Origin: Elioraea sp.
GTDB taxonomy: Bacteria; Pseudomonadota; Alphaproteobacteria; Acetobacterales; Acetobacteraceae
DNA: 64,000 bases
Assembly (NCBI RefSeq): GCF_022842375.1
Contig: NZ_JALHPR010000005.1
Span: forward strand, 134,370-198,369
Reading direction: 5' to 3'
Under the pieces are notes generated by a model that saw nothing but the letters and a program-made list of their open reading frames with translations, made no database searches and was not told the origin of the DNA. Both the position numbers and the translations under genes were made by a program. Every line of letters begins with the position of its first letter. The first letter of the stretch is position 1. This document shows positions 2,614-45,383 of the stretch, piece after piece.

Positions 2614-2622
2614 GGGCTGCTC

Positions 2623-5258: not shown

Positions 5259-5272
5259 GTGCCCGTTCCCCC

Positions 5273-5965: not shown

Positions 5966-6892
5966 ATGACCGGAGTGATGCCACCGATGACCATGGCCAG
6001 CCTGCCGGACGAAGCCGTCCACCTGCCTTTCGATGACGGACCGTTCCGCATGGCGATGGGCCTCGTCGCCTGTCCCGAGGATGACTGGCTCGAGATCGAC
6101 GCTCGCTACCATGAGGAGATGGCAGAGCGTCGCGACCTGCTGGCCGCGCGCCATGCCGAGGTCTTTGCTGCCTGCCCGGGCTCTGAGCCGGCGCGCGTGG
6201 AGGTGCTGGAAGTTGTCGCCGCGCATCTTGTGCGGCGATACCCCGCCTGGTTCATGCGTGAGTGCGACACGCTGCATAACGCGTTGACGGGCGAGACGTG
6301 GACGCTCACGGCCCCGCACTGCGATCCGCTCGCGCTCGCTGGCCTGCTGGTGCAGGAGGATCTATGCCTCATCCGCCCTGGCGCGGACGCGGCCGTGCTC
6401 GAAGCAGCGGTGGTGTGCGCGCCGAGCCGCTGGCGGCTTGCGGAGAAGATCGGTCGACCGTTGATGGCGGTTCACGCACCGGTGCCGTTCTACGGAGACA
6501 GGCTCGGCAGCCCGGTCGATCGCTTCATGCGGCAGCTGAAGCCCGGGCGGATCGCTGTCAGGATGAACTGGTCGATCGTCGATGATCCTGCGCTGTTCCA
6601 GCCACATGCTCCATCGCGCCACGAGGCCTGCTCACCGATCACTTCGAGCAATGCCGGCGAAACACTGCATTTCCGCATGGAACGGCAAGGGTTCCGCCTG
6701 ATGGAGCGATCAGGCTCGGTGCTGTTCACCATCCGCGTCCACAGCTATCCGCTGGCCCGTGTCGTTCGTCTCCCCGGCGTCGCGGCGCGGCTCGCCGGGG
6801 CGGTGCGAGCACTGCCGCCCGAGATGTCCGCATACAAGGCCCTCGTGCCGTTCCTCGATCCGCTGCACGCCTATCTCGCGGCGGTGGCGTGA
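5966..6892 (+). CDS. DUF3445 family protein (haem-dependent oxidative N-demethylase alpha-subunit-like)
   Basis: ORF 5924..6892. The sequence (DDWLEID..YHEEMAERRDLL.., QEDLCLI, VCAPSRWRLAEKIG) matches my memory of DUF3445. The start is uncertain: in-frame ATGs lie at 5924, 5966, 5978, 5987 and 5993, and 5966 has GAGGAAG 10 nt upstream. Confidence 0.7.
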   Translation: MTGVMPPMTMASLPDEAVHLPFDDGPFRMAMGLVACPEDDWLEIDARYHEEMAERRDLLAARHAEVFAACPGSEPARVEVLEVVAAHLVRRYPAWFMRECDTLHNALTGETWTLTAPHCDPLALAGLLVQEDLCLIRPGADAAVLEAAVVCAPSRWRLAEKIGRPLMAVHAPVPFYGDRLGSPVDRFMRQLKPGRIAVRMNWSIVDDPALFQPHAPSRHEACSPITSSNAGETLHFRMERQGFRLMERSGSVLFTIRVHSYPLARVVRLPGVAARLAGAVRALPPEMSAYKALVPFLDPLHAYLAAVA

Positions 6893-22333: not shown

Positions 22334-23010
22334 CCCCGCGCGGCCTGTGCGGCGAGAAGCTCGGCGATGCGCGCGTTGGTGCCGTTGATGTCTGGCATCC
22401 TCTCGCCCGCGGCGATGCGCGCGAGCGTCGTCTTCTCCGCCTCCTGCATGCCGATGGCGCGTTCCGCCGCCTCGGTGATCTCGGCGGCCTTCAGCACGAG
22501 AACGCCGTTCTCGTCCGCCAGGACGGCATCGCCGGGCTCAACCGCAACGCCGCCGCAGGAGATGGGCACGCAGAACTCGCCATGCGTGAATTGCCGCTTG
22601 CCCGTCACTGCGGAGAGGCCGCGCGCCCAGACCGGAACGCCATAGTCGCGCAACTCGCCGATGTCGGTTGCCATGCCGTCGATGATGATGCCGGCGCATC
22701 CAGCCTCGCGCGCGGCGAAGGCGACGCCGCCGCCGCAGGAGGCGTGGCGCATGTCGCCGGCACGGTCCATCACCAGGACATCGCCAGGGCGGAGCTTGCC
22801 GAGTGCGTAGTGGACGATCGTCGTATCGGAGCCGTGGCAGCGGATGGTCACGGCCGTGCCGGCGATGCGCCGATCGGGCAGCAGGCCGCGGATTTCCGGC
22901 GCCATGAAGCCGGTGTGGCGGAAATGGCCGATCGTTGCCGGTTCGGCGCGACGGAGCAGGTCGAGCAGGGCAGGCGGCACCGGTGCTGGCAGGTCATTGA
23001 TGGTGAACAT
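22330..23010 (-). CDS. RraA / 4-hydroxy-4-methyl-2-oxoglutarate aldolase family protein
   Basis: 226 aa from MFTINDLPAP. GDVLVMDRAGDMRHASCGGGVAFAAREAGCAGIIIDGMATD is typical of the RraA-like fold. Confidence 0.8.
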   Translation of the reverse strand: MFTINDLPAPVPPALLDLLRRAEPATIGHFRHTGFMAPEIRGLLPDRRIAGTAVTIRCHGSDTTIVHYALGKLRPGDVLVMDRAGDMRHASCGGGVAFAAREAGCAGIIIDGMATDIGELRDYGVPVWARGLSAVTGKRQFTHGEFCVPISCGGVAVEPGDAVLADENGVLVLKAAEITEAAERAIGMQEAEKTTLARIAAGERMPDINGTNARIAELLAAQAARG

Positions 23011-23158
23011 CGGCAGGGGTCCTCGATTGCGGGCGCAGCGCGACAAGGATCGTAGTCCGCAAAAGGTCGCTGCACATCAGCGATCGCAGCGGCGTTGCGT
23101 TCGCGCCGGGAGCCGTTACGATCAGCGTACGCAGCGGAACGACCTGGAGGACGATGCG

Positions 23159-24034
23159 ATGGCACTCGCGATCACGCCGCTCACGCCATCCGGTTTCGGT
23201 GCCGAGGTGACCGGCATCGATCCGACGCTTCAGCTCGACGAGGAAACGTTCCGTGCCGTCGAGCAGGCGTGGCACGATCATGCTGTGCTGGTGTTCCGCG
23301 ATCTTGCGATGACGCCGGAGCAGCAGATCGCGTTCACGCGGAGGCTCGGCCCGCTGCACATCATGGTGCCGCTTCAATACAATCTCGATGGTCACCCGGA
23401 GATCTTCGTCGTCGGCAATGCCGAGGAGGGGGGCAAGGCCGTCGGCATGCGCCGCGCCGGGATGGGGTTCCATAGCGATGGCGAGGACAAGGCCATCCCG
23501 AATGCCGGGTCGTTCCTCGCCGCAGTGCAGGTTCCGCCCGAGGGAGGCGACACCATCTTCGCAGACACGCGGGCAGCGTGGCATGCCCTACCGCGCGAGA
23601 CGAAGGCGCGGCTGGCGGGGCGCCGTGCGCGGTTCAGCAGGATCACGCTGCACCACGTCCACTATCCGCACCTGCCGGCATTGACGGATGAGCAGAAGCG
23701 CGACCGCCCTGATGTGTGGCACCCGATCGCGCGGCTGCACCCGCGCAACAGTCGTGTGGCCCTCTATATCGGGCGATGGGCTGTCGAGATCGAGGGTATG
23801 GCGGAGGCGGAGGGAACAGCGCTGATCGCCGAGCTCTGCGATGTCGCGCACCGGCCAGAGTTCCTCTATCGCCACAGCTGGCGGCCCGGCGATGCCGTGC
23901 TGTGGGACAATCGCTGCACGCAGCATTGTGCCACGTCGTTCGACGAGGAGCGCTACACGCGGCGCATGCATCGCACGACGCTGGAGGGCGAGGCGCCGGT
24001 GCTCGCCTCCGTTGCCGCGGCGGTCGCTGCTTGA
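23159..24034 (+). CDS. TauD/TfdA-family Fe(II)/2-oxoglutarate dioxygenase
   Basis: 291 aa from MALAITPLTPSGFGAEVTGID, with a GGAGG RBS. It has FHSDGED (HxD) and WDNRCTQHCAT (distal His). Confidence 0.85.
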   Translation: MALAITPLTPSGFGAEVTGIDPTLQLDEETFRAVEQAWHDHAVLVFRDLAMTPEQQIAFTRRLGPLHIMVPLQYNLDGHPEIFVVGNAEEGGKAVGMRRAGMGFHSDGEDKAIPNAGSFLAAVQVPPEGGDTIFADTRAAWHALPRETKARLAGRRARFSRITLHHVHYPHLPALTDEQKRDRPDVWHPIARLHPRNSRVALYIGRWAVEIEGMAEAEGTALIAELCDVAHRPEFLYRHSWRPGDAVLWDNRCTQHCATSFDEERYTRRMHRTTLEGEAPVLASVAAAVAA

Positions 24035-26381: not shown

Positions 26382-28751
<2,370 letters not shown>

Positions 28752-28839
28752 TCACTCCACCGATCGGGTAATGTTCTGTCGGGTCGTACGTTAGCGGGTT
28801 TCCGATGATGAATGGAAGCGTGGCACGCTAACGAATGTG

Positions 28840-28854
28840 ATAGATGACATCTAT
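28840..28854. promoter_or_regulatory. ATAG-N7-CTAT element (candidate OxyR half operator)
   Basis: ATAGatgacatCTAT, read directly, lies 52 nt upstream of the oxyR ATG in the katG-oxyR divergent region. Only one dyad of the four-element consensus is present. Confidence 0.35.
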
Positions 28855-28905
28855 CAAGCCTGGGTGGCCGACCTGGCCATCCACGCGTCCGGGTAGGTCC
28901 GATCC

Positions 28906-29811
28906 ATGAACCTGAGAGACCTGCGCTACATCCTCGCCATCGCGGAGCACAGGCATTTTGGCCGCGCTGCTGAGGCCTCCGGCATCAGCCAGCCGACGCT
29001 CTCGGTGCAGCTGCGCAAGCTCGAGGAGCTGCTGGGTGTCGCGCTGTTCGAGCGCAGCAGCAAGGCCGTGGTGCCGACCGCCGCCTGCGAGCGGCTGATC
29101 GGCCATGTCCGCGCTGCCGTGGCGGAGGCTGACGCGATCCTCTCCGTTGCACTCACGCTGCGCGACCCGCTGGCCGGGCGCTTCCGGCTTGGCATCATCC
29201 CGACGCTCGCACCCTATCTGCTCCCGCTGGTGTTCGCGCCGCTGCGCGAGGCGCTGCCCGCGCTCGAGGTCGAGCCGTGGGAGGACCAGACGTCAGCCAT
29301 CGTCGACCGGCTGCGGGCGCATGAACTCGATGCCGCACTTCTCGCCACCGATCTCGACGGGCCCGACCTCGCGAGCCGGCCGCTCTTCGCCGAGCCGTTC
29401 CTTGCGGCCCTGCCGCCGGAGCATCCGCTTGCCGCCCGCGCCGTCGTGGAGGAGGGCGAGCTTGCGCGCGACATCCTCGTGCTGGCCGAGGGGCATTGCC
29501 TGCGCGACCAGACGCTCGCCGCCTGTGGGCAGAGCGGGGCGCTCGGCGGCACGCTGCGCGCCGCGTCCCTCTCGACGCTGCTGAACATGGTGGCCGCCGG
29601 CTACGGCACGACGCTGATCCCCGGGCTCGCTGCCGGTGCGGCGCAGGATGCCGGCATCGTGCTGCGCCCGCTCGCCGCGCAGGCGGGGCGGACGGTGCGC
29701 ATCGTGTGGCGCGCGCGCTTTCCTCGCCGCGGTGCCGTGGATGCGGTGGGCGACGTGATCGCCGCGCGCCTGCGCGGGTTTGCGACCGGCGGCGCGACGG
29801 GGGCGGTTTGA
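28906..29811 (+). CDS. oxyR: LysR-family peroxide sensor OxyR
   Basis: N-terminal HTH (MNLRDLRYILAIAEHRHFGRAAEASGISQPTLSVQLRKLE) and LAEGHCLRDQTLAACG carrying both redox Cys. It is divergent from katG. Confidence 0.85.
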   Translation: MNLRDLRYILAIAEHRHFGRAAEASGISQPTLSVQLRKLEELLGVALFERSSKAVVPTAACERLIGHVRAAVAEADAILSVALTLRDPLAGRFRLGIIPTLAPYLLPLVFAPLREALPALEVEPWEDQTSAIVDRLRAHELDAALLATDLDGPDLASRPLFAEPFLAALPPEHPLAARAVVEEGELARDILVLAEGHCLRDQTLAACGQSGALGGTLRAASLSTLLNMVAAGYGTTLIPGLAAGAAQDAGIVLRPLAAQAGRTVRIVWRARFPRRGAVDAVGDVIAARLRGFATGGATGAV

Positions 29812-29824: not shown

Positions 29825-30208
29825 CTACTTGATCGCGATTGCAGCCGCGGCGGCGGGCGCGAGTTCGGCGGTTGGCGCGATCGTTCCGTGGTTGGCCAGC
29901 ATGTACGCGCTGATCGCCCACTTGTCCTCGTCGCTGAGCTTCGTCGGGTCGTCGAAGGGCATCATCATCTGGTTGTATTCGAACAGGCCCATCGCGTTCT
30001 CGAAGCGCGCGATCTTCGCTCCCTGGCCCCAGATCGGTGTCTGATAGCCCGCACCCGCGCGGCCATCGTCGCCATGGCAGGCAGCGCAGTAATCGGCGAA
30101 CAGCCGCGCACCATGGCCGACCTGTTGGCTGCGCGGCGCATCGGCCGATGCGAGGGAGACGAAGGCGACAGTGACGCCGGCGAGAGCGGCAAATACAAGC
30201 GAACGCAT
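29825..30208 (-). CDS. sorB: Monohaem cytochrome c, SorB-like
   Basis: 127 aa with a signal peptide (MRSLVFAALAGVTVAFVSLASA) and a CAACH motif. It lies immediately downstream of the sulfite-oxidase-family gene. Confidence 0.7.
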   Translation of the reverse strand: MRSLVFAALAGVTVAFVSLASADAPRSQQVGHGARLFADYCAACHGDDGRAGAGYQTPIWGQGAKIARFENAMGLFEYNQMMMPFDDPTKLSDEDKWAISAYMLANHGTIAPTAELAPAAAAAIAIK

Positions 30209-30248
30209 CGTGGCAGCATGCTCCGGGTTGGTTCAGCGGGAGGGAGCG

Positions 30249-30274
30249 GCCGGCCCCCGAACGCAGGGGCCGGC
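30249..30274 (-). other. Intercistronic hairpin between sorA and sorB
   Basis: GCCGGCCCC-(8 nt)-GGGGCCGGC forms a perfect 9-bp stem. Confidence 0.3.
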
Positions 30275-30293
30275 ACCTGGAGGCAGGGTCGTC

Positions 30294-31676
30294 TCAGACC
30301 ACCTCGACCCTGAATTTCGGGATGGCCCAGTTCGCCATGCCGAGCGTGTTGAGCGGCACCTTCTCCGGCTGCTGCGTCCCGGCAGTGTCGGTCGCGCGCG
30401 TCTCGATCACGTGCTGGCCCGCCGTCGCGTTCCACGGCACGTCGAACCTGACCCAGGTGTACTTGCCGAGATTGGGAGGCCTGATCGCCGCCTGCTGCCA
30501 GGCGCCGCCGTCGATCCGCACCTCGACGTTCCGCACGCCGTGCTGCGGCGCCCAGGCATAGCCGCGCAGCGTCTGCTGCCCGGCCGAGAGGCGCGGGACC
30601 TGGCCACGCTGCAGCGGGTAGTTCGCCGGCACCGACGGCGACTTCTCGAGCACAAGCGGCACGGTGATGAAGGATTTCGGCGGCATCCAGGTGACCATGG
30701 GCCCCTTGATGTCGTCCGCCGTCACGCCGATGAACTCGTCATCGGCGCTGAACTCGGGCCGCGCGTAGCTGGGCCCGATATAGACCTCGCCTCGCGTGTT
30801 CAGCCGCGCCCAGACGCGCTTGTCGGTGACGCGGATCTCGGTGAGCCACTTGATCGAGGCGGTGCCGCCCCAGCCGGGCACGACCATGCGCACCGGTGCG
30901 CCGTGATCGGGGATCAGCGGGTTGCCGTTCATCGCGAAGCAGACGCCCATGTCGTGCTGCAGCGAAGCGACGTCGCTGTAGGGCATCGGCCTGCCCATGT
31001 CATTGCCGTCGACGCCCGACCAGAACAGCACCGTGCGTGCGCCTGGCTTGATACCGACGCGGGCGAAGATCTCGCTCATCGGGACGTACTGCCACTCGGC
31101 CTGGCCGACGGCACCGAGCACCCAGTTGCCGCCGGCAACCTCCTGCCCGGTCAGCCCGTCCTGCTCCCAGAACAGCGTGCGCCCGTTGCCGTGGCATTCC
31201 ATCGTCGCGATGATCGTGCGCGACGGCATGGCGAGCAGGTCGTTGTACGAAAGGTCGACCGGCCGCTCGACGGAGGTGCCGTGGATGCGCAGCTTCCAGT
31301 TCTCGCGCGCAAGCACGGGGCGCTGTTCGACCGTCGGTGTCGGGTAGTGGTTGCGGACGTAGAATTCCTCAACCGGCGTCATGAACGTTTTGAAGTTCCA
31401 GTAATTGCCGGAACGAACCGTCGCGCCGATGTTCAAGACGCGGCTGTCGTCCTTCAGGATCGCCCTCCGCGGGGCTGGCGCCGGCTGCGCCGGTGCCTGT
31501 GCCGGTGCCTGTGCCGGGGCCTGCGCCAGGGCCTGGGTCGACCCGGTCCCGATCGCCGCCGCCGCCCCGAACGCCGCCGCCGAGACGAACAGCGATCGCC
31601 GCTGCGTGTTGGTGCCGTCCTTCAGGACGGTCTGGGCGATCTGGTCCGCTTCCGCACGCTGTTTTCGTTCCGACAT
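30294..31676 (-). CDS. sorA: Sulfite dehydrogenase, molybdopterin subunit (sulfite oxidase family, SorA-like), Tat-exported
   Basis: 460 aa with a Tat signal (TQRRSLFVSAAAFGAAAA), Mo-ligand region ATMECHGNGR, SIKWLTEIRV, and a C-terminal dimerisation-type domain. GGGGAGGA RBS. Confidence 0.8.
   Translation of the reverse strand: MSERKQRAEADQIAQTVLKDGTNTQRRSLFVSAAAFGAAAAIGTGSTQALAQAPAQAPAQAPAQPAPAPRRAILKDDSRVLNIGATVRSGNYWNFKTFMTPVEEFYVRNHYPTPTVEQRPVLARENWKLRIHGTSVERPVDLSYNDLLAMPSRTIIATMECHGNGRTLFWEQDGLTGQEVAGGNWVLGAVGQAEWQYVPMSEIFARVGIKPGARTVLFWSGVDGNDMGRPMPYSDVASLQHDMGVCFAMNGNPLIPDHGAPVRMVVPGWGGTASIKWLTEIRVTDKRVWARLNTRGEVYIGPSYARPEFSADDEFIGVTADDIKGPMVTWMPPKSFITVPLVLEKSPSVPANYPLQRGQVPRLSAGQQTLRGYAWAPQHGVRNVEVRIDGGAWQQAAIRPPNLGKYTWVRFDVPWNATAGQHVIETRATDTAGTQQPEKVPLNTLGMANWAIPKFRVEVV
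31477..31536 (-). repeat. Imperfect 12-bp tandem repeat inside sorA encoding (AQAP)n
   Basis: GCCGGTGCCTGT x2 is exact (31489..31512), flanked by degenerate copies. It translates to ALAQAPAQAPAQAPAQPAPAP just after the Tat signal. Confidence 0.6.
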
Positions 31677-31726
31677 CCGTCATCCTCCCCATCTTGCCCG
31701 GCCATCCGGGATGCGGACGGGAGATG

Positions 31727-31742
31727 AGCAACCTCCGTGCCG
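31727..31742 (-). promoter_or_regulatory. Sigma-54 (-24/-12) promoter upstream of sorA
   Basis: The minus strand reads CGGCACG-GAGG-TTGCT, against the consensus TGGCACG-N4-TTGCW with exact spacing. The -12 GC lies 52 nt upstream of the sorA ATG. Confidence 0.6.
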
Positions 31743-31769
31743 CGGCCCACGGGGCCGAACGAGTTGGAC

Positions 31770-31782
31770 TATCAATGCGTTG
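31770..31782. promoter_or_regulatory. IHF core-consensus match
   Basis: tATCAAtgcgTTG fits WATCAANNNNTTR perfectly. It lies between the inverted repeat and the -24/-12 element. Confidence 0.4.
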
Positions 31783-31804
31783 CGCCAGACCGACAGCACC
31801 GCAT

Positions 31805-31820
31805 GTCCGGATTTCCGGAC
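31805..31820. promoter_or_regulatory. Perfect inverted repeat GTCCGGA-TT-TCCGGAC (candidate enhancer/UAS)
   Basis: Read directly. It lies 14 nt after the stop of the EBP gene and about 65-80 nt upstream of the -24 element. The 2-nt loop makes a terminator hairpin unlikely. Confidence 0.4.
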
Positions 31821-31833
31821 GGCGGTCCATGGG

Positions 31834-33204
31834 TCAGTCCGAGATTTCGGATTGACTGGACCCTGTGCGCAGCGCGAAGCGGCGCACCTTCTCGAACATG
31901 GTCGAGCGCGAGACGTCGAGCCGTTCCGCCGCGCGCGCCACGTCGCCGTTGCAGGCGGCGAGTGCCGCGGCGATCGCGCGGCGCTCCGCCGCATCGCGCG
32001 CCGCGGCCAGAGTCCCTCCCCCATCGGCTTCGGGTGCGGCCAGGGCGCGCTCGGGGAACAGGTCGGCCGCGCCGATCCAGTCGCCATCGGCCAGGGCGAC
32101 GGCCCGCTCCATCCGATTGCGCAACTCGCGGATGTTGCCGGGGAAGGCGTATGCCAGCAGCGCCGCCTCGGCGACACTCGTCAAGCCACGGCGTGGCCTG
32201 CCGAACGCGGCGGCGAATTCACCGAGGAAGCGGCGGGCGAGCGGCAGCACGTCCTCGCCTCTCGCCCTGAGCGGCGGCATCGCGACATGGATGACCGCCA
32301 GGCGGAAGAAGAGATCGGCGCGGAACAGGCCGGCCGCGACCCTTGCCTCGAGATCGGCATTCGTCGCGGCAACGATCCGTGCACGGAACGGCAGGTCGCT
32401 GCTGCCGCCGACGCGGCGGAAGCTCCGTTCCTGCAGCAGCCGCAGCAGCTTCGCCTGAAGTGCCAACGGCAGTTCGGCGACCTCGTCGAGAAACAGCATG
32501 CCAGCGCCAGCGCGGAACGCCAGCCCGTCATGCCGTGCGGCAGCGCCTGTGAAGGCGCCGCGCTCATGGCCGAAGATCTCGCTCTCCAGAAGGTCAGGCG
32601 GGATCGCGGCGCAGTTGACCGCGATGAACGGCGCTTCCGCGTGCGGTCCCTCCGCGTGCAACAGGCGTGCGGCAACCTCCTTGCCCGATCCGCTCGGGCC
32701 GGTGATGAGCACGGTCGAGGCGATCGGCGCGATGCGGCGCAGCAGTCGCTCGACCGCAGCGATCGACGGCGATGTGCCGAGGACAAGCCCGCCGCAGCGC
32801 TGCCAGCGTGGCGCGAGCAGCGCCTCAAGTCGTTCTAAAAGCGTATCTATATCGAAAGGCTTGGTCAGGTAGTCGGCGGCACCGGCCCGCATCAGCCGCA
32901 CGGCCTGCGCGACGTCGCCGAAACCGGTGACGAACAGCATCGGCACCTGGCCGCATTGCTGCGCGAGCGCGCGATGGATGTCCTCGCCCGACATGTCGGG
33001 CAGCCTGATGTCGCAGATCACCGCGTCAGGGGGGCGCATGCCGAGCGCGCCGATCGCCTCAGCGCCGGTGCGAAACCATTGCGTGCGGTAGCCCTCGACC
33101 GCCAGCCAGTCGACCACGGATTGGCCCATCACCGGGTCATCCTCGATCAGCGCGACCAGGGGGGCTGTGTCAGGCTGCGTCGGCAAGGCGGCGTTCCGCG
33201 GCAT
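31834..33204 (-). CDS. NtrC-family sigma-54-dependent response regulator (REC + AAA+ + HTH), motifs intact
   Basis: REC domain (VICDIRLPDMSG), Walker A GPSGSGKE, GAFTGA, Walker B LFLDEV, FPGNIRELRN, and an HTH (AAERLDVSRSTMFEKVRRF). Confidence 0.9.
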   Translation of the reverse strand: MPRNAALPTQPDTAPLVALIEDDPVMGQSVVDWLAVEGYRTQWFRTGAEAIGALGMRPPDAVICDIRLPDMSGEDIHRALAQQCGQVPMLFVTGFGDVAQAVRLMRAGAADYLTKPFDIDTLLERLEALLAPRWQRCGGLVLGTSPSIAAVERLLRRIAPIASTVLITGPSGSGKEVAARLLHAEGPHAEAPFIAVNCAAIPPDLLESEIFGHERGAFTGAAARHDGLAFRAGAGMLFLDEVAELPLALQAKLLRLLQERSFRRVGGSSDLPFRARIVAATNADLEARVAAGLFRADLFFRLAVIHVAMPPLRARGEDVLPLARRFLGEFAAAFGRPRRGLTSVAEAALLAYAFPGNIRELRNRMERAVALADGDWIGAADLFPERALAAPEADGGGTLAAARDAAERRAIAAALAACNGDVARAAERLDVSRSTMFEKVRRFALRTGSSQSEISD

Positions 33205-34603
33205 CTGGAATCCTCACGGTGATCGCCGCGCCCGGTGGACCGGCAATGGTGATGGTGGCGCCCAGTTCGGCTGTCAGCCGCGCCACGGTCCAGAGGCCGA
33301 GGCCATTTGTCGGCAGCTGGCGACCGGCCGCAGCACCTGTGAGCAGCACCTCTGCCGCTGCCGGCAGCCCGGGCCCGTCATCGGCAACGGTGAGGATGAG
33401 CGCGCCAGCCTCGGTGACGGCATGAAAGCGCAGCGTGCCCTGCGGGGGCGATGCAGCGCAGGCGTTGAGCAGGAGATTGAGCGCGATCTGGCGCACCGCC
33501 TGCGCCGGGATCGCGGGGGTCGATGCGAGATCCTGCCGCCAGGCGAGAACCAGGTCGCGGCGCCGCGCCTCGCTTTCGATCAGGTAGCGGAGATCGTCGA
33601 TGTCGCCGGGCGCGAGGGGGCGGTCATCCACCTCGCCGCGCCACAGCATCAGCGAGGCACGGACCACGTTGTGGATGCCGGTCAGCCCCCGTTCGAGCAG
33701 GGCCGCCGCGCGGGCGCGGTGCACCGGATCGGCGCCGTGGCGTTCGATCATGCGGACGGCGTTGAACAGGCCGCCGAGCGGGTTGTTGACCTCATGCGCC
33801 ATGGCCGAGGCGTAGCGGCCGACCAGGGCGCGGCGTTCCTGCTCGGCAAGGCGCTTCAGCAGTGCCTCGCGCTCGGTGATCGCCGCTGCAGCGGCGTTGT
33901 AGCGGCGGTAGGCACGGCCCTCATCCGTATCCTCGGGCGGCAGCTCCGCCTCGGGAATGGGATCGAGCCGCCCCTCACTGGCTTGCGCGAGCCGGTCCGA
34001 CAGGCGGAGCACCGGGCGCAGCATCCGCTGCACCAGGAGCCAGCCGAGTGCCGCGAGCAGGATGGTCAGCGCCGCGTTGAGGCCGACCAGCGCGGCAAGT
34101 GCCGCGCGCCGTTCCGCCGCCAGCGCGGTGACGTCGATCTCGGCGGCGATCCTGCCGATCGCCACGCCGGCCTCGACCATCGCCCGATGGATCCACACCG
34201 TGCCGTGCGCGGTATCGAGCTGCGTCGGGTCGCCATCTGGGTGGGAGGCGGGCGGGGCCGGAGAGCCGAGCGGGTGGGGCAGAGGATCGGAGGCTGCGAG
34301 CACCGTGTCGTCGGGCAGCACGACGAGCACGCGCAGCGCCGCGACGCCGGAGTAGCGCGTGCGCGAGCGGTCGAGCGCATCGAATGCTTCCCACGGATCG
34401 CGGCGGATCAGCGCCGGCTGGAGCGCGGTCGAGAGCCCATCGAGATAGGCGCCGCCGAGCTCGGTGAAATGCGCTGCCTGCGTCGCCTCGATCCGCAGCA
34501 GCACGAGCTTGGAGATCGCCGCGGCGACACCGATCATCAGCGCCGCGACGAGCAGCGGCACCTTGATGGCAAGCGGCCAGCGCATCCTCCGCCGCGCGCT
34601 CAT
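33170..34603 (-). CDS. Sensor histidine kinase (two TM segments, periplasmic loop)
   Basis: H-box SAMAHEVNNPL and an ATPase region (DDGPGLP...NGLGLW). The stop lies 35 nt inside the annotated RR start. The ATG overlaps the upstream SBP stop (ATGA). Confidence 0.85.
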   Translation of the reverse strand: MSARRRMRWPLAIKVPLLVAALMIGVAAAISKLVLLRIEATQAAHFTELGGAYLDGLSTALQPALIRRDPWEAFDALDRSRTRYSGVAALRVLVVLPDDTVLAASDPLPHPLGSPAPPASHPDGDPTQLDTAHGTVWIHRAMVEAGVAIGRIAAEIDVTALAAERRAALAALVGLNAALTILLAALGWLLVQRMLRPVLRLSDRLAQASEGRLDPIPEAELPPEDTDEGRAYRRYNAAAAAITEREALLKRLAEQERRALVGRYASAMAHEVNNPLGGLFNAVRMIERHGADPVHRARAAALLERGLTGIHNVVRASLMLWRGEVDDRPLAPGDIDDLRYLIESEARRRDLVLAWRQDLASTPAIPAQAVRQIALNLLLNACAASPPQGTLRFHAVTEAGALILTVADDGPGLPAAAEVLLTGAAAGRQLPTNGLGLWTVARLTAELGATITIAGPPGAAITVRIPDAAERRLADAA

Positions 34604-35484
34604 CCTGCCTCCCTCACCTGGCGCCAGAGCGCCGCGATGCTGTCGAATTGCGATGGGGCGACCGGGGCGAACCCATCAAGGCGGAGTGTGGCGAGGATCT
34701 CCTGCCCGATCGTGCTTCTGTCCATCCCGAGGAATGCTGCCTTGGTTGCGGCGATGATCGAGGGCTCGGTCTGGCGGGAGGCGGCGATGGGCGGGAAGCC
34801 CATCGGCTCCGAGGTTCGCAGGATGCGCGTCGCCCTGACCAGAGCCGGCTCGAGCTCGGCCATCACGTCCCACACATAGCCATCGACCGATCCGGACTGG
34901 GCGAGGCCCGAGGCGACGGCCCGGATGACGTTGCGATGGCCGTAGGTGAAGAAGCTGCGTGCGAAGAACCCGGCGGCCGTCTCTCCCCTGGCGGCCAGCG
35001 CGGCGCTCGTGACCAGGAACCCGGAATTGCTGTCGGGGTCCGAGAAGGCGTGGATGTCGCCGCTGAGGTCGGCGAGGCTCTCGGCCCGCCTGTCGCGGCG
35101 AACGATCACGTAGGAGCGGTAGAGCGACGCGCCGCGATAGAGCGGTGCCGCCACGAGGCTCAGCGCCTCGCGGTGCTGCACGAAGGGAAAGCCGCAGATC
35201 CAGGCGGCGTCGAGCTGGCCGGCAATGAGCAGCGCGCTGATCTCGCGATAGGTGCGGCGCTTGACGACCTGCACCGTCCTGCCGAGGCGGCGGGAGAGAT
35301 AGGCCTCGATCTGGCGCACGAGCACGATGTCGCTGTCGAGGAAAACTGGGGTGAGCCCGAGCGTGATGGGCCGTGCTGCCCTGGCGCTGCCCGACCAGCC
35401 TGAGGCCAGGGCAAGCGCGGGGGAAGCGGCCATGAGGGCACGACGGGTCGTCCACGTTGGCGTCGCGTGCGCCCCTTCCATCAT
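34600..35484 (-). CDS. PhnD-like (phosphonate-binding family) periplasmic binding protein, Tat signal
   Basis: ITLGLTPVFLDSDIVLVRQIEAYLSRRLGRTVQVVKRRTYREISALLIAGQLDAAWICGFPFV is typical of the PhnD-type fold. The start MMEGAHATPTWTTRRALMAASPALALA was chosen at 35484, 1 nt after the upstream stop. Confidence 0.75.
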   Translation of the reverse strand: MMEGAHATPTWTTRRALMAASPALALASGWSGSARAARPITLGLTPVFLDSDIVLVRQIEAYLSRRLGRTVQVVKRRTYREISALLIAGQLDAAWICGFPFVQHREALSLVAAPLYRGASLYRSYVIVRRDRRAESLADLSGDIHAFSDPDSNSGFLVTSAALAARGETAAGFFARSFFTYGHRNVIRAVASGLAQSGSVDGYVWDVMAELEPALVRATRILRTSEPMGFPPIAASRQTEPSIIAATKAAFLGMDRSTIGQEILATLRLDGFAPVAPSQFDSIAALWRQVREAG

Positions 35485-35485
35485 C

Positions 35486-37117
35486 CTACCGCTCATCGCC
35501 GGGCGGTGCATCGTCGCCGCGCGCAAGACGGCGCAGTACGTGCTTCTGCACCTTGCCGGTGGAGGTTCGCGGCACGGTGGTGAACACCACCCGCCGCGGT
35601 GCCTTGTAGTGGGCGATCGCCCCGCGCACGAAGGCGATCAGCTCGTCCTCCGTCGCGCCGGCACCTGGCTTGAGCTCGACGAAGGCGCACGGGCTCTCGC
35701 CCCAGCGCTCGTCCGGCATCGCCACGACCGCGGCGACGGCAACCGAGGCGTGGCGGTAGAGCGCGTCCTCCACCTCGATCGATGAGATGTTTTCCCCGCC
35801 GGAGATGATGATGTCCTTCGCACGGTCCTTCAGCTGGATGTAGCTGTCGGGATGCATCACGCCGAGGTCGCCGGTATGGAACCAGCCACCGGCGAAGGCC
35901 GCCTCGGTCGCTGCCTCGTCCTTGAGATAGCCCTTCATCACCACGTTGCCGCGCATCAGCACCTCGCCGATCGTTTCGCCATCGGCCGGCATAGGCAGGA
36001 GCGTTTCCGGATCGGCGACCGTCAGCCCCTCGAGCGCCTGGTAGCGCACGCCCTGTCGCGCCATCTTCCGCGCGCGATCCTCCGCCGGCAGCGCATCCCA
36101 CGCCTCGTTCCACTCGTTGACGACGGCAGGGCCGTACACCTCCGTCAGCCCATACACGTGGCAGACGCGGAACCCCGCTTCTGCCATGGCAGCGAGCACG
36201 GCTTCCGGCGGCGGGGCGGCGGCCGTGAGGAATGTGGGCGTGTTCTCAAGGCGCGGCCGTTCCGCAACGGGAACGTCGAGCAGCGTCGCCATCACGATCG
36301 GCGCGCCGCAGAGATGCGTCACGCCATGCGCGGCAATCAGCCGCCACATCTCGGGCCCCCGCACGTGCCGCAGGCATACATGCGTGCCGGCCAGCGCGGT
36401 GATGGTCCACGGAAAGCACCAGCCGTTGCAGTGGAACATCGGCAGCGTCCAGAGATACACGGGATGCCGCGCGATATCGCCCGCCGTGACGTTGCCGAGT
36501 GCCAGCAGATGCGCGCCGCGATGGTGGTACACGACACCCTTCGGCCGGCCCGTCGTGCCACTCGTGTAGTTGAGGGCGATCGCGTCCCACTCATCCTCCG
36601 GCCTCAGCCAGGCCCAGCCGGGATCGCCGCCAGCAAGCAGCGCCTCGTAAGCGATTCCCCCAAGCGTCTCGCCGCGCGCGGTTTCCGGGCAGGGCGGATC
36701 GTCCACCTCGATGATCAGCGGTCGCGCGGCGCAGTGACCGAGGGCTGCGCGCAGCAGCGGAATGAACTCGCGATCGACGAGGATGGCCCGCGCCTCGCCG
36801 TGGTCGAGGATGAAGCCGATGGTCGCTGCATCCAGCCGGGTGTTGATGGCGTTGAGCACGGCACGTGCCATCGGTACGCCGAAATGCGCCTCGAGCATCG
36901 CCGGGCCGTTCGGCAGCAGCGCGGCAACCGTGTCGCCGCGGCCGATGCCGTTGCCGTCGAGTGCAGAGGCAAGCCGCACTGCGCGGTCACGGAAGGCGCG
37001 GTAGCTCGTCGTTCCGCCTGCGTGCAGGATGGCAGGACGGTCGGGGAAGACGGACGCCGCGCGCGCCAGGAACGGCAGCGGCGAGAGCGGGACGAAATTC
37101 GCCGCATTCCGCTCCAT
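35486..37117 (-). CDS. Acyl-CoA synthetase (AMP-forming, medium-chain type)
   Basis: YTSGTTGRPKGV AMP motif, GWFHTGDLG, and STGKVQKHVLR. The ATG at 37117 was chosen; the alternative GTG at 37174 would overlap the upstream gene. Confidence 0.85.
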   Translation of the reverse strand: MERNAANFVPLSPLPFLARAASVFPDRPAILHAGGTTSYRAFRDRAVRLASALDGNGIGRGDTVAALLPNGPAMLEAHFGVPMARAVLNAINTRLDAATIGFILDHGEARAILVDREFIPLLRAALGHCAARPLIIEVDDPPCPETARGETLGGIAYEALLAGGDPGWAWLRPEDEWDAIALNYTSGTTGRPKGVVYHHRGAHLLALGNVTAGDIARHPVYLWTLPMFHCNGWCFPWTITALAGTHVCLRHVRGPEMWRLIAAHGVTHLCGAPIVMATLLDVPVAERPRLENTPTFLTAAAPPPEAVLAAMAEAGFRVCHVYGLTEVYGPAVVNEWNEAWDALPAEDRARKMARQGVRYQALEGLTVADPETLLPMPADGETIGEVLMRGNVVMKGYLKDEAATEAAFAGGWFHTGDLGVMHPDSYIQLKDRAKDIIISGGENISSIEVEDALYRHASVAVAAVVAMPDERWGESPCAFVELKPGAGATEDELIAFVRGAIAHYKAPRRVVFTTVPRTSTGKVQKHVLRRLARGDDAPPGDER

Positions 37118-37158
37118 CCCGGCATCGTACTTGCCCTGTCGCGAGGCCCCCCCCACCG

Positions 37159-37971
37159 TCAACGGTCCTCCCACACGGGCGGGCGCTTGGCGAGGAATGC
37201 GCCGATGCCCTCGCCCGCGTCGCGCGTCATCAGGTTCTCGACCATCACGCAGGCGGCGTCGCGATACGCCTCGCTGAGATCACGGCCGAGCTGGCGGTGG
37301 AACGACGCCTTGCCAAGGCGCACGGCGACGGCAGAACGGGCGGCGATGCGCGCGGCAAGCGCGAGCGCATCATCGCGCGCCGCCCCCGCCACGACGACGC
37401 GGTTGACGAGGCCGATGCGATGCGCCTCGGCAGCGTCGATCACGTCTCCTGTCAGCAGCATCTCCATCGCTGCCTTGCGCGGCACGGCGCGGGAGAGGGC
37501 CACGGCAGGGGTGGAGCAGAAGAGGCCGATCGACACACCAGGCGTGCAGAACCGCGCGCTCTCGTCGGCGACCGCAAGGTCGCAGGCAGCGACGAGCTGG
37601 CAGCCGGCCGCGGTCGCCATCCCGCGGACCGCCGCAATCACTGGCTGCGGTAGCGCAACGATGGCTTGCATGAAGGTGGCACAGGCGCCCATCGCGTTGG
37701 TGAAGAACGCCGCGCCGCCATCCTCGTCGGCCCTGTGCGCATCGAGTTCCGCCAGATCGTGGCCGGCGCAGAAGGCAGCCCCCTCGCCGGCGATGACGAC
37801 GACGCGAACGCCGGGGTCTGCCGCGATGGAGACGAGGGTTGCATTCAGCGCGCCGAGCATGGCGAGCGAGAGGCTGTTGCGACGTGCTGGCCGGTTCAGG
37901 CGGAGGAGGGCAACGCCATCCCCCCGCCGCTCGACGATGACCGGCATCGCTGCATCCGCCGCTGTGTCCAT
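37159..37971 (-). CDS. Enoyl-CoA hydratase/isomerase (crotonase) family
   Basis: 270 aa from MDTAADAAMPVIVERRGDGVALLRLNRPARRNSL, with GEGAAFCAGHDL and a GAGGAG RBS. Confidence 0.85.
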   Translation of the reverse strand: MDTAADAAMPVIVERRGDGVALLRLNRPARRNSLSLAMLGALNATLVSIAADPGVRVVVIAGEGAAFCAGHDLAELDAHRADEDGGAAFFTNAMGACATFMQAIVALPQPVIAAVRGMATAAGCQLVAACDLAVADESARFCTPGVSIGLFCSTPAVALSRAVPRKAAMEMLLTGDVIDAAEAHRIGLVNRVVVAGAARDDALALAARIAARSAVAVRLGKASFHRQLGRDLSEAYRDAACVMVENLMTRDAGEGIGAFLAKRPPVWEDR

Positions 37972-38161
37972 GACGTTCTCCTCACCGACCATCCGGGACG
38001 CAGGGTGCCGCCAAACCGGCCCGGCCGCCAGCACCGAGGGGGCGGGTGCGCACGTCAGGCTGGCATCCGTCGCCGGATCGCCGCATTCTTGGCTCAAGAG
38101 CATTGCGCATGCCGCCGGGGCGGTGCGCAGCGATGCCGGAACGAAGGGAAACGTCATCATC

Positions 38162-39142
38162 ATGCCGACACGCCGCCGCACCCTGTCCCTCGCCCTCGCT
38201 GCGGGCCTCGCCCCCTCGATCGTCCGGGCGCAGGGCGCCCCGGCCTGGCGCCCGACGCGCCCGATCCGCCTGGTCGTTCCCTTCGCTCCTGGAGGATCGA
38301 ACGACATCGTCGGGCGCATCATCGCGGAGGCGACCGGCCAGGCCCTCGGCCAGCCGATCGTGGTCGAGAACCGCGCCGGTGCAGGCAGCGTCATTGGCTC
38401 TGACCATGTCGCGCGATCGGCCCCCGACGGCTACACCGTACTGATCAACAGCGCGCATGCCACCGTGCCGGCGATCGTCGCGCGCGTGCCCTACAACGCG
38501 ATCAACGACTTCGCTGGGGTCGCTGTCGCCGGCTTCTCGCCACATGTCGTGGTCGTCACGCCGCAATTCCCGGCGCGGACGGGGCAGGAGCTGATCGCGG
38601 CGATCAAGGCCAATCCTGGCCGCTACAATCTGGCAACCGCCGGCATCGGCAGCGGCGTTCACGTCGCGGCCGAACTGTTCCGCGCGAGGACGCAGATCGA
38701 GGTCGAGCTCGTGCATTACCGCGGCGGCGGGCCCGCCGTGGCCGCCCTCGTGGCGGGGGAAGCGCAGCTTGGCACGCCGACCATGGCCTCCTCGATCGGG
38801 CAGATCCGGGGTGGTGGCCTGCGCGCCATCGCGGTGATGGCGGAGCGGCGCACCGAGGTGCTGCCGGACGTGCCAAGCGCGCCGGAGGCTGGTTTTCCGC
38901 AGGCGATCTTCGAGGAGTTCTTCCCTATCCTCGCCCCCGCCGCCACGCCGGCGCCGGTGCTGGCAGCACTCGGTGCCGCATTCCGTGGCGCGATCCAGCA
39001 GAACGCGGCACGGCTCGCCGAGCTTGCCGGCGTCACGCCGCGCGCCGGGTTCGAAAGCCCGGAGCAGGTGATGACGCTGGTGCGACAGGGGGTCGAGAGC
39101 TACACGGCGATCCTGCGCGCTGCCGGCGTGCAGCCCGAATAG
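38162..39142 (+). CDS. Bug-family (TctC-like) tripartite tricarboxylate transporter substrate-binding protein, orphan
   Basis: 326 aa from MPTRRRTLSLALAAGLAPSIVRAQG, with PIRLVVPFAPGGSNDIVGRIIAE...VENRAGAGS. It is the only real part of the 1096-aa ORF 35852..39142. Confidence 0.85.
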   Translation: MPTRRRTLSLALAAGLAPSIVRAQGAPAWRPTRPIRLVVPFAPGGSNDIVGRIIAEATGQALGQPIVVENRAGAGSVIGSDHVARSAPDGYTVLINSAHATVPAIVARVPYNAINDFAGVAVAGFSPHVVVVTPQFPARTGQELIAAIKANPGRYNLATAGIGSGVHVAAELFRARTQIEVELVHYRGGGPAVAALVAGEAQLGTPTMASSIGQIRGGGLRAIAVMAERRTEVLPDVPSAPEAGFPQAIFEEFFPILAPAATPAPVLAALGAAFRGAIQQNAARLAELAGVTPRAGFESPEQVMTLVRQGVESYTAILRAAGVQPE

Positions 39143-43573: not shown

Positions 43574-44307
43574 CGCACTTCCACGGCCCTGATCGCCTCG
43601 TTCAGCACGATCGCCACGATCGCGAGCAGCAGCACGCCCGCGAACAGGCGATCCATCATGAAGTTCTCCCCCCAGCTCGCGATCTGGTGGCCCATGCCGG
43701 TGCGCGAGGCATACATCTCGGCGAGCAGCACCGCGGTGAAGCCGAAGATCACCGCGAGCCGGAAGCCTTCGAGCAGGATGGGCAGCATGCTCGGCAGGTA
43801 GACGCGCCAGGCGATCTGCGCCCGCGTCGCCCCGAAGGCGCGGGCGACGAACACGTGATCGGGCCGCACGGCGCGCACGGCGGCCGTTGCACTCATCAGC
43901 ACGATGAATACCGTGGAGAACACGCCGAAGGCGACCTTCTGCCAGAAGCCGATCCCCATCGTGAGAATGAACATCGGCAGGAAGATCGATTTCGGGATGC
44001 TGAACAGGAAGAACACCAGGGGATCGAAGATCGCGCCGAGGCGTGGGTTCTCCGACAGCAGCAAACCGAGCAGCGTGCCCACCGGCAGTGCCACAGCCAC
44101 CGCGACCAGGAGCTGGACCGTCGTGATCGCGAGATCGGCGCGGAGTGCAGGCCGCGCGAGCAGGCCCCACAGCGTACCGAGCACGGTGGAGAACGGCGGC
44201 AGCAACTCCGGATCGGCCACGCCAAGCCGCGGCAACGCTTCCCAGGCGCCGAGAAACGCAGCGATCAGCAAGGCGCGGCCGAGCAGAACGGGCAGGCTGC
44301 TCCTCAT
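43552..44307 (-). CDS. ABC permease, NitT/TauT family (second copy)
   Basis: 251 aa from MRSSLPVLLGRALLIAAFLGAWEALPRLG. The ATG overlaps the SBP stop (ATGA). Confidence 0.85.
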   Translation of the reverse strand: MRSSLPVLLGRALLIAAFLGAWEALPRLGVADPELLPPFSTVLGTLWGLLARPALRADLAITTVQLLVAVAVALPVGTLLGLLLSENPRLGAIFDPLVFFLFSIPKSIFLPMFILTMGIGFWQKVAFGVFSTVFIVLMSATAAVRAVRPDHVFVARAFGATRAQIAWRVYLPSMLPILLEGFRLAVIFGFTAVLLAEMYASRTGMGHQIASWGENFMMDRLFAGVLLLAIVAIVLNEAIRAVEVRCSHWRS

Positions 44308-45317
44308 GCGCCCGTCGGCACGGGCTTGAACCGTGTCGTGAACGTTTCCGCTGCCGGCGCAAGATCCGTCATGCCGCCGAGCCGGGCGAGGTCGAGCGCG
44401 ACCTCGATCTGTGCCTGGTCGAGCGCGCCATCGGTCAGCAGCTTCAGGATCGTCTCCTCGTACTCGATCGCGGCGATTTCTGCCGGGATCTCGTTGTTCT
44501 CGGCGATCAGCGCGATCGCGCCATCGCGGTTGGCGCGGAGCCACGCGAGCCCGCCGAACAGGGCGTTCACGCTGCCCTGCACCGCCTGCGGGCGCTCCTG
44601 GATCAGCTTGTCGGTGACGATCCACCCGGCGACGGTGTGGCGCGGCATCGCGGTAGTGAAATCGATCAGGCTCCGGGCCTGGCCCGCGCGCATCAGCTGG
44701 AACGTCAGCGGTGAGTAGATCACCGCGGCATCGAGATTGCGCGTGCGCAGGTTCGGAACGAGGCCACCGCCACCGACGGGAACGCGCGTGAACTCGACCT
44801 TGCGGTCCTGCCCGGTCCAGAGTGCGAGCAGATCGGAGCCGGAGCCCGCGGCGGTGATACCGACCTTCTTGCCTGCAAGCTCCGACACCGCGGTGATCGG
44901 GGAATCCTGGCGCACCATCAGGTGCCAGCCGTAGTAGGCATCCTGCGCGCCGGCGACGAGTTTCGAGCGCACGCCGCGGCGAATGCCGGTGGCGACGAGC
45001 GAGGGCGGATCGAGGATGATATCGGCAGCACCCGCCGCCAGGGCCTCGAAACACTCGGCACCGCTGCGGTAGATCGTCATCTCCGCACGCAGGCCCTCCT
45101 TCTCGAACAGTCTCTGGCGCAGCGTCGCCAGCGTGACGATGGTCGGCCAATAGGCCTTGGTCGGCACGCCGACGCGGATCATTCCGCCGGACTGCGCGAT
45201 CGCTGGTGCTGCCAGCGCCGCGGCGCCGAGGCCGAGCCCGAGCTTCAGTGCGTCGCGACGGTCGATCATCATGCCGCGTGACACGCTGTGCTGCGTGTCG
45301 GTTCCTTGCTTTGACAT
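44304..45317 (-). CDS. NMT1/THI5-like (NitT/TauT-type) periplasmic substrate-binding protein, Tat signal
   Basis: 337 aa with MIDRRDALKLGLGLGAAALAAPAIAQ. It is the first gene of the co-oriented ABC cluster. Confidence 0.8.
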   Translation of the reverse strand: MSKQGTDTQHSVSRGMMIDRRDALKLGLGLGAAALAAPAIAQSGGMIRVGVPTKAYWPTIVTLATLRQRLFEKEGLRAEMTIYRSGAECFEALAAGAADIILDPPSLVATGIRRGVRSKLVAGAQDAYYGWHLMVRQDSPITAVSELAGKKVGITAAGSGSDLLALWTGQDRKVEFTRVPVGGGGLVPNLRTRNLDAAVIYSPLTFQLMRAGQARSLIDFTTAMPRHTVAGWIVTDKLIQERPQAVQGSVNALFGGLAWLRANRDGAIALIAENNEIPAEIAAIEYEETILKLLTDGALDQAQIEVALDLARLGGMTDLAPAAETFTTRFKPVPTGA

Positions 45318-45383
45318 ATCGTTTCGCTCCCTGGTTGTTCTGATCTTTGGTTGTCGCCGATCCTGCCGCGTCTGTTTCGGCCG

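Follow-up and report, generated by a model that had tools for sequence, protein, structure and literature searches.

Layout of the locus

We analyzed a 64,000-nucleotide stretch of the Elioraea sp. genome (Acetobacteraceae; assembly GCF_022842375.1, contig NZ_JALHPR010000005.1, positions 134,370 to 198,369), called the window here, and focused on a minus-strand locus at 29825-38394. In this locus, genes for a periplasmic binding protein (X), a sensor histidine kinase (S) and a response regulator (R) precede those for a molybdoenzyme of the sulfite oxidase (SUOX) fold and a cytochrome c. Comparison with related loci shows that X, S and R belong to the arsenite-sensing AioX, AioS and AioR family, and we weigh whether the enzyme that follows them may itself oxidize arsenite. 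Domains of the window proteins were called with Pfam and family-level scores were taken from NCBIfam. In order of transcription, the features are as follows.

Within 37159-38394, minus strand: enoyl-CoA hydratase (crotonase) gene, first in transcription order
35486-37174, minus strand: acyl-CoA ligase gene; its open reading frame (ORF) ends at 35486, 1 nt ahead of the X start
34600-35484, minus strand: X, aioX-like gene for a predicted periplasmic arsenite-binding protein of the AioX/ArxX subfamily (PF12974, E 2e-50; N-terminal twin-arginine motif TRRALM)
33170-34603, minus strand: S, aioS-like gene for a membrane sensor histidine kinase (HisKA and HATPase_c)
31834-33204, minus strand: R, aioR-like gene for an NtrC-type sigma-54 enhancer-binding response regulator (Response_reg, Sigma54_activat, AAA_lid_14 and HTH_8)
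31805-31820, no strand assigned: predicted AioR box GTCCGGAAATCCGGAC, matching a footprinted AioR site
31775-31790, minus strand: possible second box GTCTGGCGCAACGCAT, degenerate and lying 30 nt downstream of the first (a weak match, inferred only)
31727-31742, minus strand: sigma-54 -24/-12 promoter cGGCAC-GGAGG-TTGCT (pattern match and conservation)
31684-31688, minus strand: ribosome-binding site GGAGG, 7 nt ahead of the molybdoenzyme ATG (read from the sequence)
30294-31676, minus strand: gene for the SUOX-fold molybdoenzyme, with predicted export by twin-arginine translocation (Tat) (Oxidored_molyb PF00174 and Mo-co_dimer PF03404; invariant RR at residues 26-27)
29825-30208, minus strand: gene for a monoheme cytochrome c (CAACH motif, signal peptide; PF13442 and PF00034), the presumed electron acceptor of the molybdoenzyme

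The genes and their coordinates had been proposed in an initial annotation, and all were borne out, on the minus strand, by ORF and Pfam checks. So was the spacing it described: X and S are joined by an ATGA overlap (34600-34603), S and R overlap by 35 nt, a 157-nt gap (31677-31833) separates R from the molybdoenzyme gene, and X begins 1 nt after the ligase. The kinase, predicted to have two transmembrane segments and a loop, carries HisKA and HATPase_c domains and two hydrophobic segments on either side of a loop of about 130 residues. The translation of R contains the GAFTGA and Walker A motifs expected of an intact sigma-54 activator, and the proposed -24/-12 promoter ahead of the molybdoenzyme gene was located at 31727-31742. 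It had also been cautioned that the sensory genes might be transcribed together with the ligase and crotonase genes. The 1-nt spacing agrees with this, but the adjacency is specific to the window and is not conserved elsewhere. A functional link between the module and the ligase or crotonase was considered and rejected, since these neighbors are not conserved in any related locus.

Related loci were gathered by a scan of a genome collection, which yielded 80 loci: 70 with close relatives of the enzyme (61-86% identity) and 10 outgroup loci (L070-L079; 48-52%).

Assignment of the sensor trio

X had been described as a Tat-signal, PhnD-like binding protein. The fold and the twin-arginine motif stand, but the label is too general for a protein that is an AioX. 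Against solved structures, X matched AioX of Rhizobium sp. NT-26 best by far (PDB 6esv/6esk; E 4e-89, over the whole mature protein), followed by ArrX (1e-34) and by PtxB/PhnD (1e-12 or worse). With the NT-26 aioXSR-aioBA-cytC locus, taken from a plasmid collection, as reference, X, S and R are 55, 39 and 49% identical to AioX, AioS and AioR, respectively (54.7% for X; full length for S). A Microvirga trio linked to aioBA stands at the same distance from NT-26 (54, 44 and 55%), and its AioR is 54% identical to that of the window. The order aioX-aioS-aioR, the membrane kinase, and a regulator with a receiver domain, a sigma-54 AAA+ domain (GAFTGA) and a Fis-type helix-turn-helix (HTH) are all those of AioXSR systems, and S always adjoins X in the related loci. 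Judged by sequence, X is AioX, S is AioS and R is AioR, members of an arsenite-sensing family.

The binding pocket leads to the same assignment. Badilla et al. named Y88, C106, Y131, S161, S163, H192 and D210 as arsenite/phosphate pocket residues, together with a V56/F57 loop that is typical of arsenite binders and missing from arsenate-binding ArrX (PMC5908839). All of these, and N162, are kept in the window X, and the same pocket and loop residues are identical in 52-54 of 54 enzyme-linked X proteins. For each of AioX, ArxX and ArrX, the ligand is the substrate of the molybdoenzyme under its control, and NT-26 AioX bound none of sulfate, thiosulfate, tetrathionate or antimonite (PMC5908839).

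We also placed the X proteins in a simple neighbor-joining distance tree without bootstrap, for which the pairwise identities are the firmer evidence. In the tree, proteins linked to the SUOX-fold enzyme interleave with those linked to aioBA or arx, following taxonomy. The enzyme-linked trio of a Bosea metagenome-assembled genome (MAG; L018) is 76, 72 and 72% identical to the aioBA-linked trio on a Bosea F3-2 plasmid and 56, 40 and 50% identical to the window trio. Similarly, the trio of locus L043 is 61, 48 and 58% identical to an aioBA-linked Hydrogenophaga trio. A separate, sulfur-sensing paralog clade of X was considered and is ruled out by the interleaving and the pairwise identities. Because enzyme-linked and aioBA-linked trios interleave and their DNA boxes agree (see below), the simplest reading of the sequences would be a single sensor family recombined with different enzyme modules, a conclusion that Badilla et al. 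reached for Aio, Arx and Arr (PMC5908839).

These comparisons bear on a first alternative, built on the initial annotation, in which sulfite, a sulfonate or a similar sulfur oxyanion is the ligand of the binding protein and the target is a genuine SorAB-type sulfite dehydrogenase serving sulfite detoxification. A sensor with every AioX arsenite-pocket residue, up to 76% identical to aioBA-linked AioX and interleaved with such proteins, speaks against a signal of this kind, as does the failure of NT-26 AioX to bind the sulfur anions tried.

A locus with no enzyme was seen on the megaplasmid of Methylorubrum extorquens AM1 (L082, 316538 region), which carries arsB and moeA together with AioX-like (58% identical to NT-26) and AioS-like genes. 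Where aioR and enzyme genes would be expected there is an IS21 element (istA/istB), and an aio-type locus seems to have decayed in this model methylotroph.

The predicted AioR box and sigma-54 promoter

The palindrome GTCCGGAAATCCGGAC at 31805-31820 lies upstream of the -24/-12 element, and about 62 bp separate the two. Footprinting in Agrobacterium tumefaciens GW4 identified GTTCGGATTTCCGAAC as the AioR site (PMC5335332). The window palindrome and this site are alike at 14 of 16 positions and differ only by symmetric T-to-C and A-to-G changes. Boxes of the same class occur upstream of aioB in NT-26, Microvirga, Paracoccus seriniphilus and Bosea F3-2. According to Li et al., every aioXSR-bearing aioBA operon has one or two palindromes 100-200 nt before aioB and a -24/-12 box (PMC3834237), and the layout of box and promoter in the window is the same. 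An AioR box ahead of the enzyme gene is a further argument against control by a sulfur oxyanion. The pattern GTYCG-N6-CGRAC was found three times in the window, compared with 0.73 expected; the other two matches, at 33742-33757 inside aioS and at 58480-58495 inside a DctM transporter gene, are probably due to chance.

Matches to the sigma-54 pattern are not rarer than chance across the whole window (22 found, 25 expected), and the -24/-12 element carries weight because of its position and its conservation in orthologous loci. Wherever the regulator is NtrC-type, a -24/-12 promoter with one or two boxes lies upstream of the enzyme gene, the box being present in most related loci. Alphaproteobacterial loci have TGGCAC-N5-TTGC[AT] 64-92 nt before the start codon, and TGGC-N8-TTGC elements are present in betaproteobacterial ones. 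The box itself reads GTCCG-N6-CGGAC in Alphaproteobacteria and GTTAC-N6-GTAAC in Betaproteobacteria, and many loci have two boxes 31 nt apart. The agreement with aio operons extends to these relatives: the betaproteobacterial box GTTACTTTTTTGTAAC is identical, letter for letter, to that upstream of aioB in Hydrogenophaga BPS33, and the box before the enzyme gene of L018, GTTCGGAAACCTGAAC, has its counterpart upstream of aioB in Bosea F3-2, GTTCGGAAATCTGAAC.

Eight alphaproteobacterial loci (L027, L028, L031-L034, L037 and L038) encode a regulator of about 212 residues with a receiver domain and a Fis-type HTH, without the sigma-54 AAA+ domain. These eight also have no -24/-12 promoter; two GTTCA-N6-TGAAC palindromes are followed by a TTGCC-type element instead. 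Here sigma-70 control seems to have replaced sigma-54 control in nature, with the DNA site kept.

The molybdoenzyme and its cytochrome

By its domains the molybdoenzyme is a SUOX-fold protein, apparently of an uncharacterized clade. The Pfam calls on it include no DMSO-reductase-type large subunit with a molybdenum bis-pyranopterin guanine dinucleotide (Mo-bis-PGD) cofactor, and no Rieske or 4Fe-4S domain. Its best matches among solved structures, found with HMMER, are SorT (E 7e-38, 133.7 bits) and SorA (E 2e-29, 105.6 bits). The gene pair had been named sorA and sorB, a label that found no support at the family level: the enzyme scored 161.6 against a cut-off of 570 for SorT, 141.2 against 600 for SorA and 156.7 against 420 for SoxC. 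In the protein database, 452 relatives were found at E <= 1e-20, and the 120 listed are 63-92% identical and carry generic names only.

The alignment shows both what the enzyme shares with sulfite oxidizers and what sets its family apart. C161 is the molybdenum-ligand cysteine, aligned with SorA Cys104, and R108, H110 and R166 are the conserved equivalents of SorA Arg55, His57 and Arg109. H162, which directly follows the cysteine and replaces a serine, and E297 are invariants specific to the family. The position of SorA Tyr236 aligns either with E297 or with residue 299, which is Tyr in 106 and Phe in 14 of 120 sequences. Relative to SorA and SorT, the family also has two insertions of about 15-20 residues each. 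An AlphaFold2 model of the enzyme, built on a 31-sequence family alignment that was short of diversity because only close relatives were in it, had a mean predicted local distance difference test score of 61.7, with active-site loops below 50, and was not used.

The SUOX fold with its dimerization domain, the four SorA-equivalent residues and the cytochrome c partner are evidence that the target may be a genuine sulfite dehydrogenase. On the other side stand scores far below the SorA, SorT and SoxC cut-offs, and the mode of control: characterized sorAB and sorT genes are sulfite-induced through extracytoplasmic function (ECF) sigma factors (PMC6527743). No ECF sigma gene adjoins the molybdoenzyme operon, and the adjacent regulator is of the AioR/sigma-54 type. 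Because the thresholds were missed, family-specific features are present and an ECF sigma gene is lacking, "sorAB" describes the fold of this pair and not a demonstrated identity.

A second possibility joins the two halves differently: the signal would be arsenite, received through AioXSR, and the enzyme would be a sulfite dehydrogenase, recruited to the arsenite regulon since sulfite, thiosulfate or thioarsenic species come with arsenite stress or with arsenic-sulfide minerals. The AioXSR identity of the sensor, taken together with intact active-site residues of the sulfite oxidase type, favors such an arrangement, and a Soe-like sulfite-oxidizing enzyme is arsenite-induced in Thioalkalivibrio (PMC6620896). 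The departures from sulfite-oxidizing enzymes at invariant positions, with H162 in place of Ser and an uncertain Tyr236 equivalent (E297 or a Tyr/Phe at 299), argue against it.

Conservation of the module

The five-gene arrangement is a recurrent one. A cytochrome c homolog follows the enzyme gene in 65 of the 70 close loci, and X and S, with or without R, adjoin the pair in 56. In 30 of the 70, mostly from Alphaproteobacteria, X-S-R is co-directional and immediately upstream, as in the window; in 17, from Betaproteobacteria, it is divergent from the enzyme gene, and in one it is convergent and downstream. X and S are followed by the 212-residue regulator, with receiver and Fis-type HTH and without AAA+ domain, in eight. 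The sensor is absent from a further eight, and in six the contig is too short to tell. None of the ten outgroup loci, mostly from Hyphomicrobiaceae, has an adjacent cytochrome c, sensor genes or conserved neighbors, and for this reason they give no clue to the ancestral function. The plasmid collection held no copy of the enzyme family, only distant actinobacterial sulfite oxidases.

The module is carried by three cultured strains, Falsiroseomonas oryzae MO-31, Roseococcus suduntuyensis DSM 19979 and Bosea sp. Tri-44. The window itself was matched in part in drinking-water, sediment and wastewater metagenomes. To judge from record titles, lakes and blooms are the source of many MAGs with related loci. 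Sulfonates are common in lake and bloom habitats, and this origin counts in favor of a sulfur oxyanion as signal. In locus L093 (1-11817), on a 5.7-Mb contig, the five-gene block lies beside a phage-type integrase and a Prim-Pol/DUF3987 gene, which suggests that the module travels on a genomic island.

Arsenic genes around related loci

Neighboring ORFs were clustered and the cluster representatives scored against NCBIfam. Recurrent neighbors include an ArsJ-associated glyceraldehyde-3-phosphate dehydrogenase (GAPDH; 530 bits, cut-off 450), ArsJ (522, cut-off 400) and ACR3 (368, cut-off 283), along with ArsR and an ArsC of the low-molecular-weight protein tyrosine phosphatase type. Of the 70 close loci, 22 have at least one of arsR, arsC, acr3 and gapdh-arsJ no farther than 10 kb away, and with L036, which has aioB instead, the count is 23. 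None of these genes was found near the enzyme in the ten outgroup loci or in the window. That ars genes flank a third of the loci speaks against a sulfur-oxyanion signal, and no conserved sulfur-oxidation genes were seen among the neighbors of related loci, which also tells against an arsenite-induced sulfite dehydrogenase.

Several loci place the enzyme inside an arsenic island. In Falsiroseomonas oryzae MO-31 (L068), the closest cultured relative, the order is arsR-acr3-arsR-arsC-gapdh-arsJ-X-S-R-enzyme-cytochrome c, mirroring gapdh-arsJ-acr3-aioXSR-aioBA on a Pseudosulfitobacter plasmid. A Burkholderiales chromosome of 2.05 Mb has no XSR at the locus (L044, 8267-14562); it reads arsC-arsR-MIP channel-enzyme-cytochrome c-gapdh-arsJ, followed by rpiA and phoU, and here the enzyme pair apparently belongs to an ars operon under ArsR control. 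This position, between a MIP channel and gapdh-arsJ in a 2-Mb genome, also argues against an arsenite-induced sulfite dehydrogenase. In L047 and L050, arsR directly adjoins the enzyme gene. Two copies of the module were seen on two contigs of a single Bosea MAG (L037 and L038), each with gapdh-arsJ-arsC-arsR downstream.

In L036, from an uncultured Hyphomicrobiaceae, an aioB 70% identical to that of NT-26 is divergent from the enzyme gene (560-1081; 1397-6883). The shared 316-bp spacer contains one box and a -24/-12 promoter, R-S-X lies convergent and downstream, and aioB and the SUOX-fold enzyme may belong to one AioR regulon. Such coexistence would make sense if the two enzymes differed in substrate, as they would under arsenite induction of a sulfite dehydrogenase. 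With the evidence on both sides, we regard that arrangement as unlikely.

Coexistence with aioB, within an arsenic-island context, would also suit a substrate other than arsenite itself, such as antimonite or a methylated or thiolated arsenical, in which case the enzyme would have an accessory role in the arsenic regulon. Additional Sb(III)/As(III) oxidases have been suspected, for example in Bosea sp. AS-1 (PMC8453088), and a related module is present in other Bosea genomes. However, NT-26 AioX did not bind antimonite, as noted above, and no sequence feature specific to antimony or organoarsenicals was found in the module. We consider a substrate of this kind quite unlikely.

Other genes in the window

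A divergent katG/oxyR pair (26382-29811) abuts the cytochrome c gene, with oxyR convergent to it and 13 nt between the stops. In L022 (with oxyR) and L040, too, katG lies no more than 10 kb from the module, and this proximity may be due to chance or to a link with oxidative stress. A second, unrelated molybdoenzyme is encoded at 3069-5855 on the minus strand, a 928-residue ORF of the xanthine dehydrogenase family with MoCoBD_1/2 domains. The window also contains a gene for a TauD/TfdA-family dioxygenase (22844-24034, plus strand), about 6 kb from the module, and one for an NMT1/SsuA-like binding protein (44304-45383, minus strand). Nothing else near the module hints at sulfonate metabolism, and neither of the two genes is conserved as its neighbor elsewhere.

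Discussion

The sensor family, the arrangement of box and promoter, the recurrent linkage of the genes and the arsenic islands around related loci, each established here at the level of sequence, make it probable that the molybdoenzyme operon is under AioXSR-type, arsenic-responsive control. We propose a model in which AioX, once it has bound periplasmic arsenite, passes a signal to the membrane kinase AioS, which would in turn phosphorylate AioR. Bound at the 31805-31820 palindrome, AioR would use its AAA+ domain to open the sigma-54 promoter at 31727-31742, from which the Tat-exported SUOX-fold molybdoenzyme and the cytochrome c would be transcribed. The molybdoenzyme would then most likely oxidize arsenite to arsenate in the periplasm and pass the electrons to the cytochrome c, doing the work of AioBA with a molybdoenzyme of another fold. 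We infer that arsenite would be the inducer in the Elioraea organism.

The wiring proposed in the initial annotation, from binding protein through kinase and sigma-54 activator to a molybdoenzyme/cytochrome operon, is upheld by synteny in 56 of 70 loci, the conserved promoter and the AioR-box match. The sulfite or sulfonate signal that it attached to this wiring is not: the trio belongs to the AioXSR family, and the module is found repeatedly inside arsenic-resistance islands. Taking into account also the TauD-family and NMT1/SsuA-like genes of the window, which count in its favor, we find a sulfur-oxyanion sensor driving a genuine SorAB very unlikely.

If arsenite is the signal, what does the enzyme oxidize? 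Arsenite is most probably the substrate because the ligand of an X-family sensor is the substrate of the enzyme under its control, because the pair holds the place of aioBA-cytC in arsenic islands, and because it also appears under ArsR control beside a MIP channel and the arsenate-detoxifying gapdh-arsJ. By analogy with AqpS, MIP channels of ars operons would conduct arsenite. Whether sulfite or arsenite is oxidized, the chemical step is the same, with an oxygen atom passing from Mo(VI)=O to a lone pair. On balance we lean, if only slightly, toward the five genes forming one arsenite-responsive module with an enzyme whose likeliest activity is arsenite oxidation. Taken singly, the assignment of the molybdoenzyme as an arsenite oxidase is tentative, and we would put it at somewhat below an even chance.

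Several observations weigh against this view. No ars, aioA, aioB or moeA gene lies within the 64-kb window, and a TauD-family dioxygenase gene lies about 6 kb away from the module. Pocket residues alone do not set ligand specificity in the binding-protein family, as Badilla et al. pointed out (PMC5908839). The enzyme keeps the full anion-binding set of sulfite oxidizers (the molybdenum-ligand Cys, two Arg, His and Trp), and sulfite would therefore fit at least as well as neutral As(OH)3. Since the enzyme and aioB coexist in L036, the enzyme need not replace AioBA. Finally, sequencing runs gave no expression support for the window, the one RNA run containing only 4% of its words.

The closest known system is the AioXSR-aioBA-cytC locus of Rhizobium/Pseudorhizobium NT-26 and Agrobacterium tumefaciens 5A/GW4. 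It has the same order of overlapping sensor genes, the arsenite-pocket residues, an AioR box 100-200 nt upstream, a -24/-12 promoter and a cytochrome c after the enzyme gene, and the ars and gapdh-arsJ genes that flank related loci are the same as those found by aioXSR. The target differs, being a single-subunit SUOX-fold protein here and not the Rieske and Mo-bis-PGD heterodimer AioBA. The ArxXSR-arxB'ABC and ArrX-linked arsenate reductase loci likewise couple the same X/S/R family to a different molybdoenzyme, and the sensor module has therefore been exchanged between enzyme modules. Those enzymes, however, are DMSO-reductase-family complexes with iron-sulfur and membrane subunits, whereas the one described here is of the sulfite oxidase family.

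On the enzyme side, SorAB of Starkeya novella and SorT/SorU of Sinorhizobium meliloti share the SUOX fold, the dimerization domain, Tat export, a downstream soluble cytochrome c and the active-site Cys, Arg, His and Arg. They are set apart by the low HMMER scores, the insertions and the His after the Mo-ligand Cys of our enzyme, and by its AioXSR or ArsR control and ars neighbors instead of an ECF sigma factor. A relative of sulfite-oxidizing enzymes has been linked to arsenite before: the arsenite-induced Soe-like cluster in Thioalkalivibrio was proposed as an alternative arsenite oxidation route (PMC6620896). That SoeABC belongs to the DMSO reductase family, has an unrelated fold, faces the cytoplasm rather than the periplasm and has no AioXSR linkage.

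Reviews list Aio and Arx as the only arsenite oxidases, although further As(III)/Sb(III) oxidases are suspected (PMC8453088, PMC6620896). In the searchable literature, with subscription-only papers outside its scope, we found no paper that ties arsenic islands, AioR or AioX to an enzyme of the SUOX, SorA, SoxC or YedY type. The claim that control of this kind is undescribed for SorAB-type enzymes thus appears to hold for the target. The AioXSR half is already well known, and its pairing with a SUOX-fold enzyme, for which no description was found, is the new part.

It is tempting to speculate that the SUOX-fold enzyme and its cytochrome c constitute a third, structurally unrelated type of bacterial arsenite oxidase beside Aio and Arx, with AioXSR, or ArsR in some genomes, as its regulator. 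Such an oxidase would occur widely among Alpha- and Betaproteobacteria of fresh water and soil (Acetobacteraceae, Hyphomicrobiales and Burkholderiales) and would escape surveys based on aioA or arxA. We consider this somewhat less likely than not, but worth stating. Were the enzyme a sulfite dehydrogenase instead, its placement behind an arsenite sensor and within ars operons would still be an unexplained link from arsenic stress to sulfite metabolism.

Arsenite oxidation in nature is now tracked by aioA and arxA, both of the DMSO reductase family. If the proposal is true, a whole group of arsenite oxidizers, common in lake, drinking-water and soil MAGs, would have been missed, and the sulfite oxidase family would gain a new chemistry. 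AioXSR would then be a portable cassette, coupled to four different molybdoenzymes.

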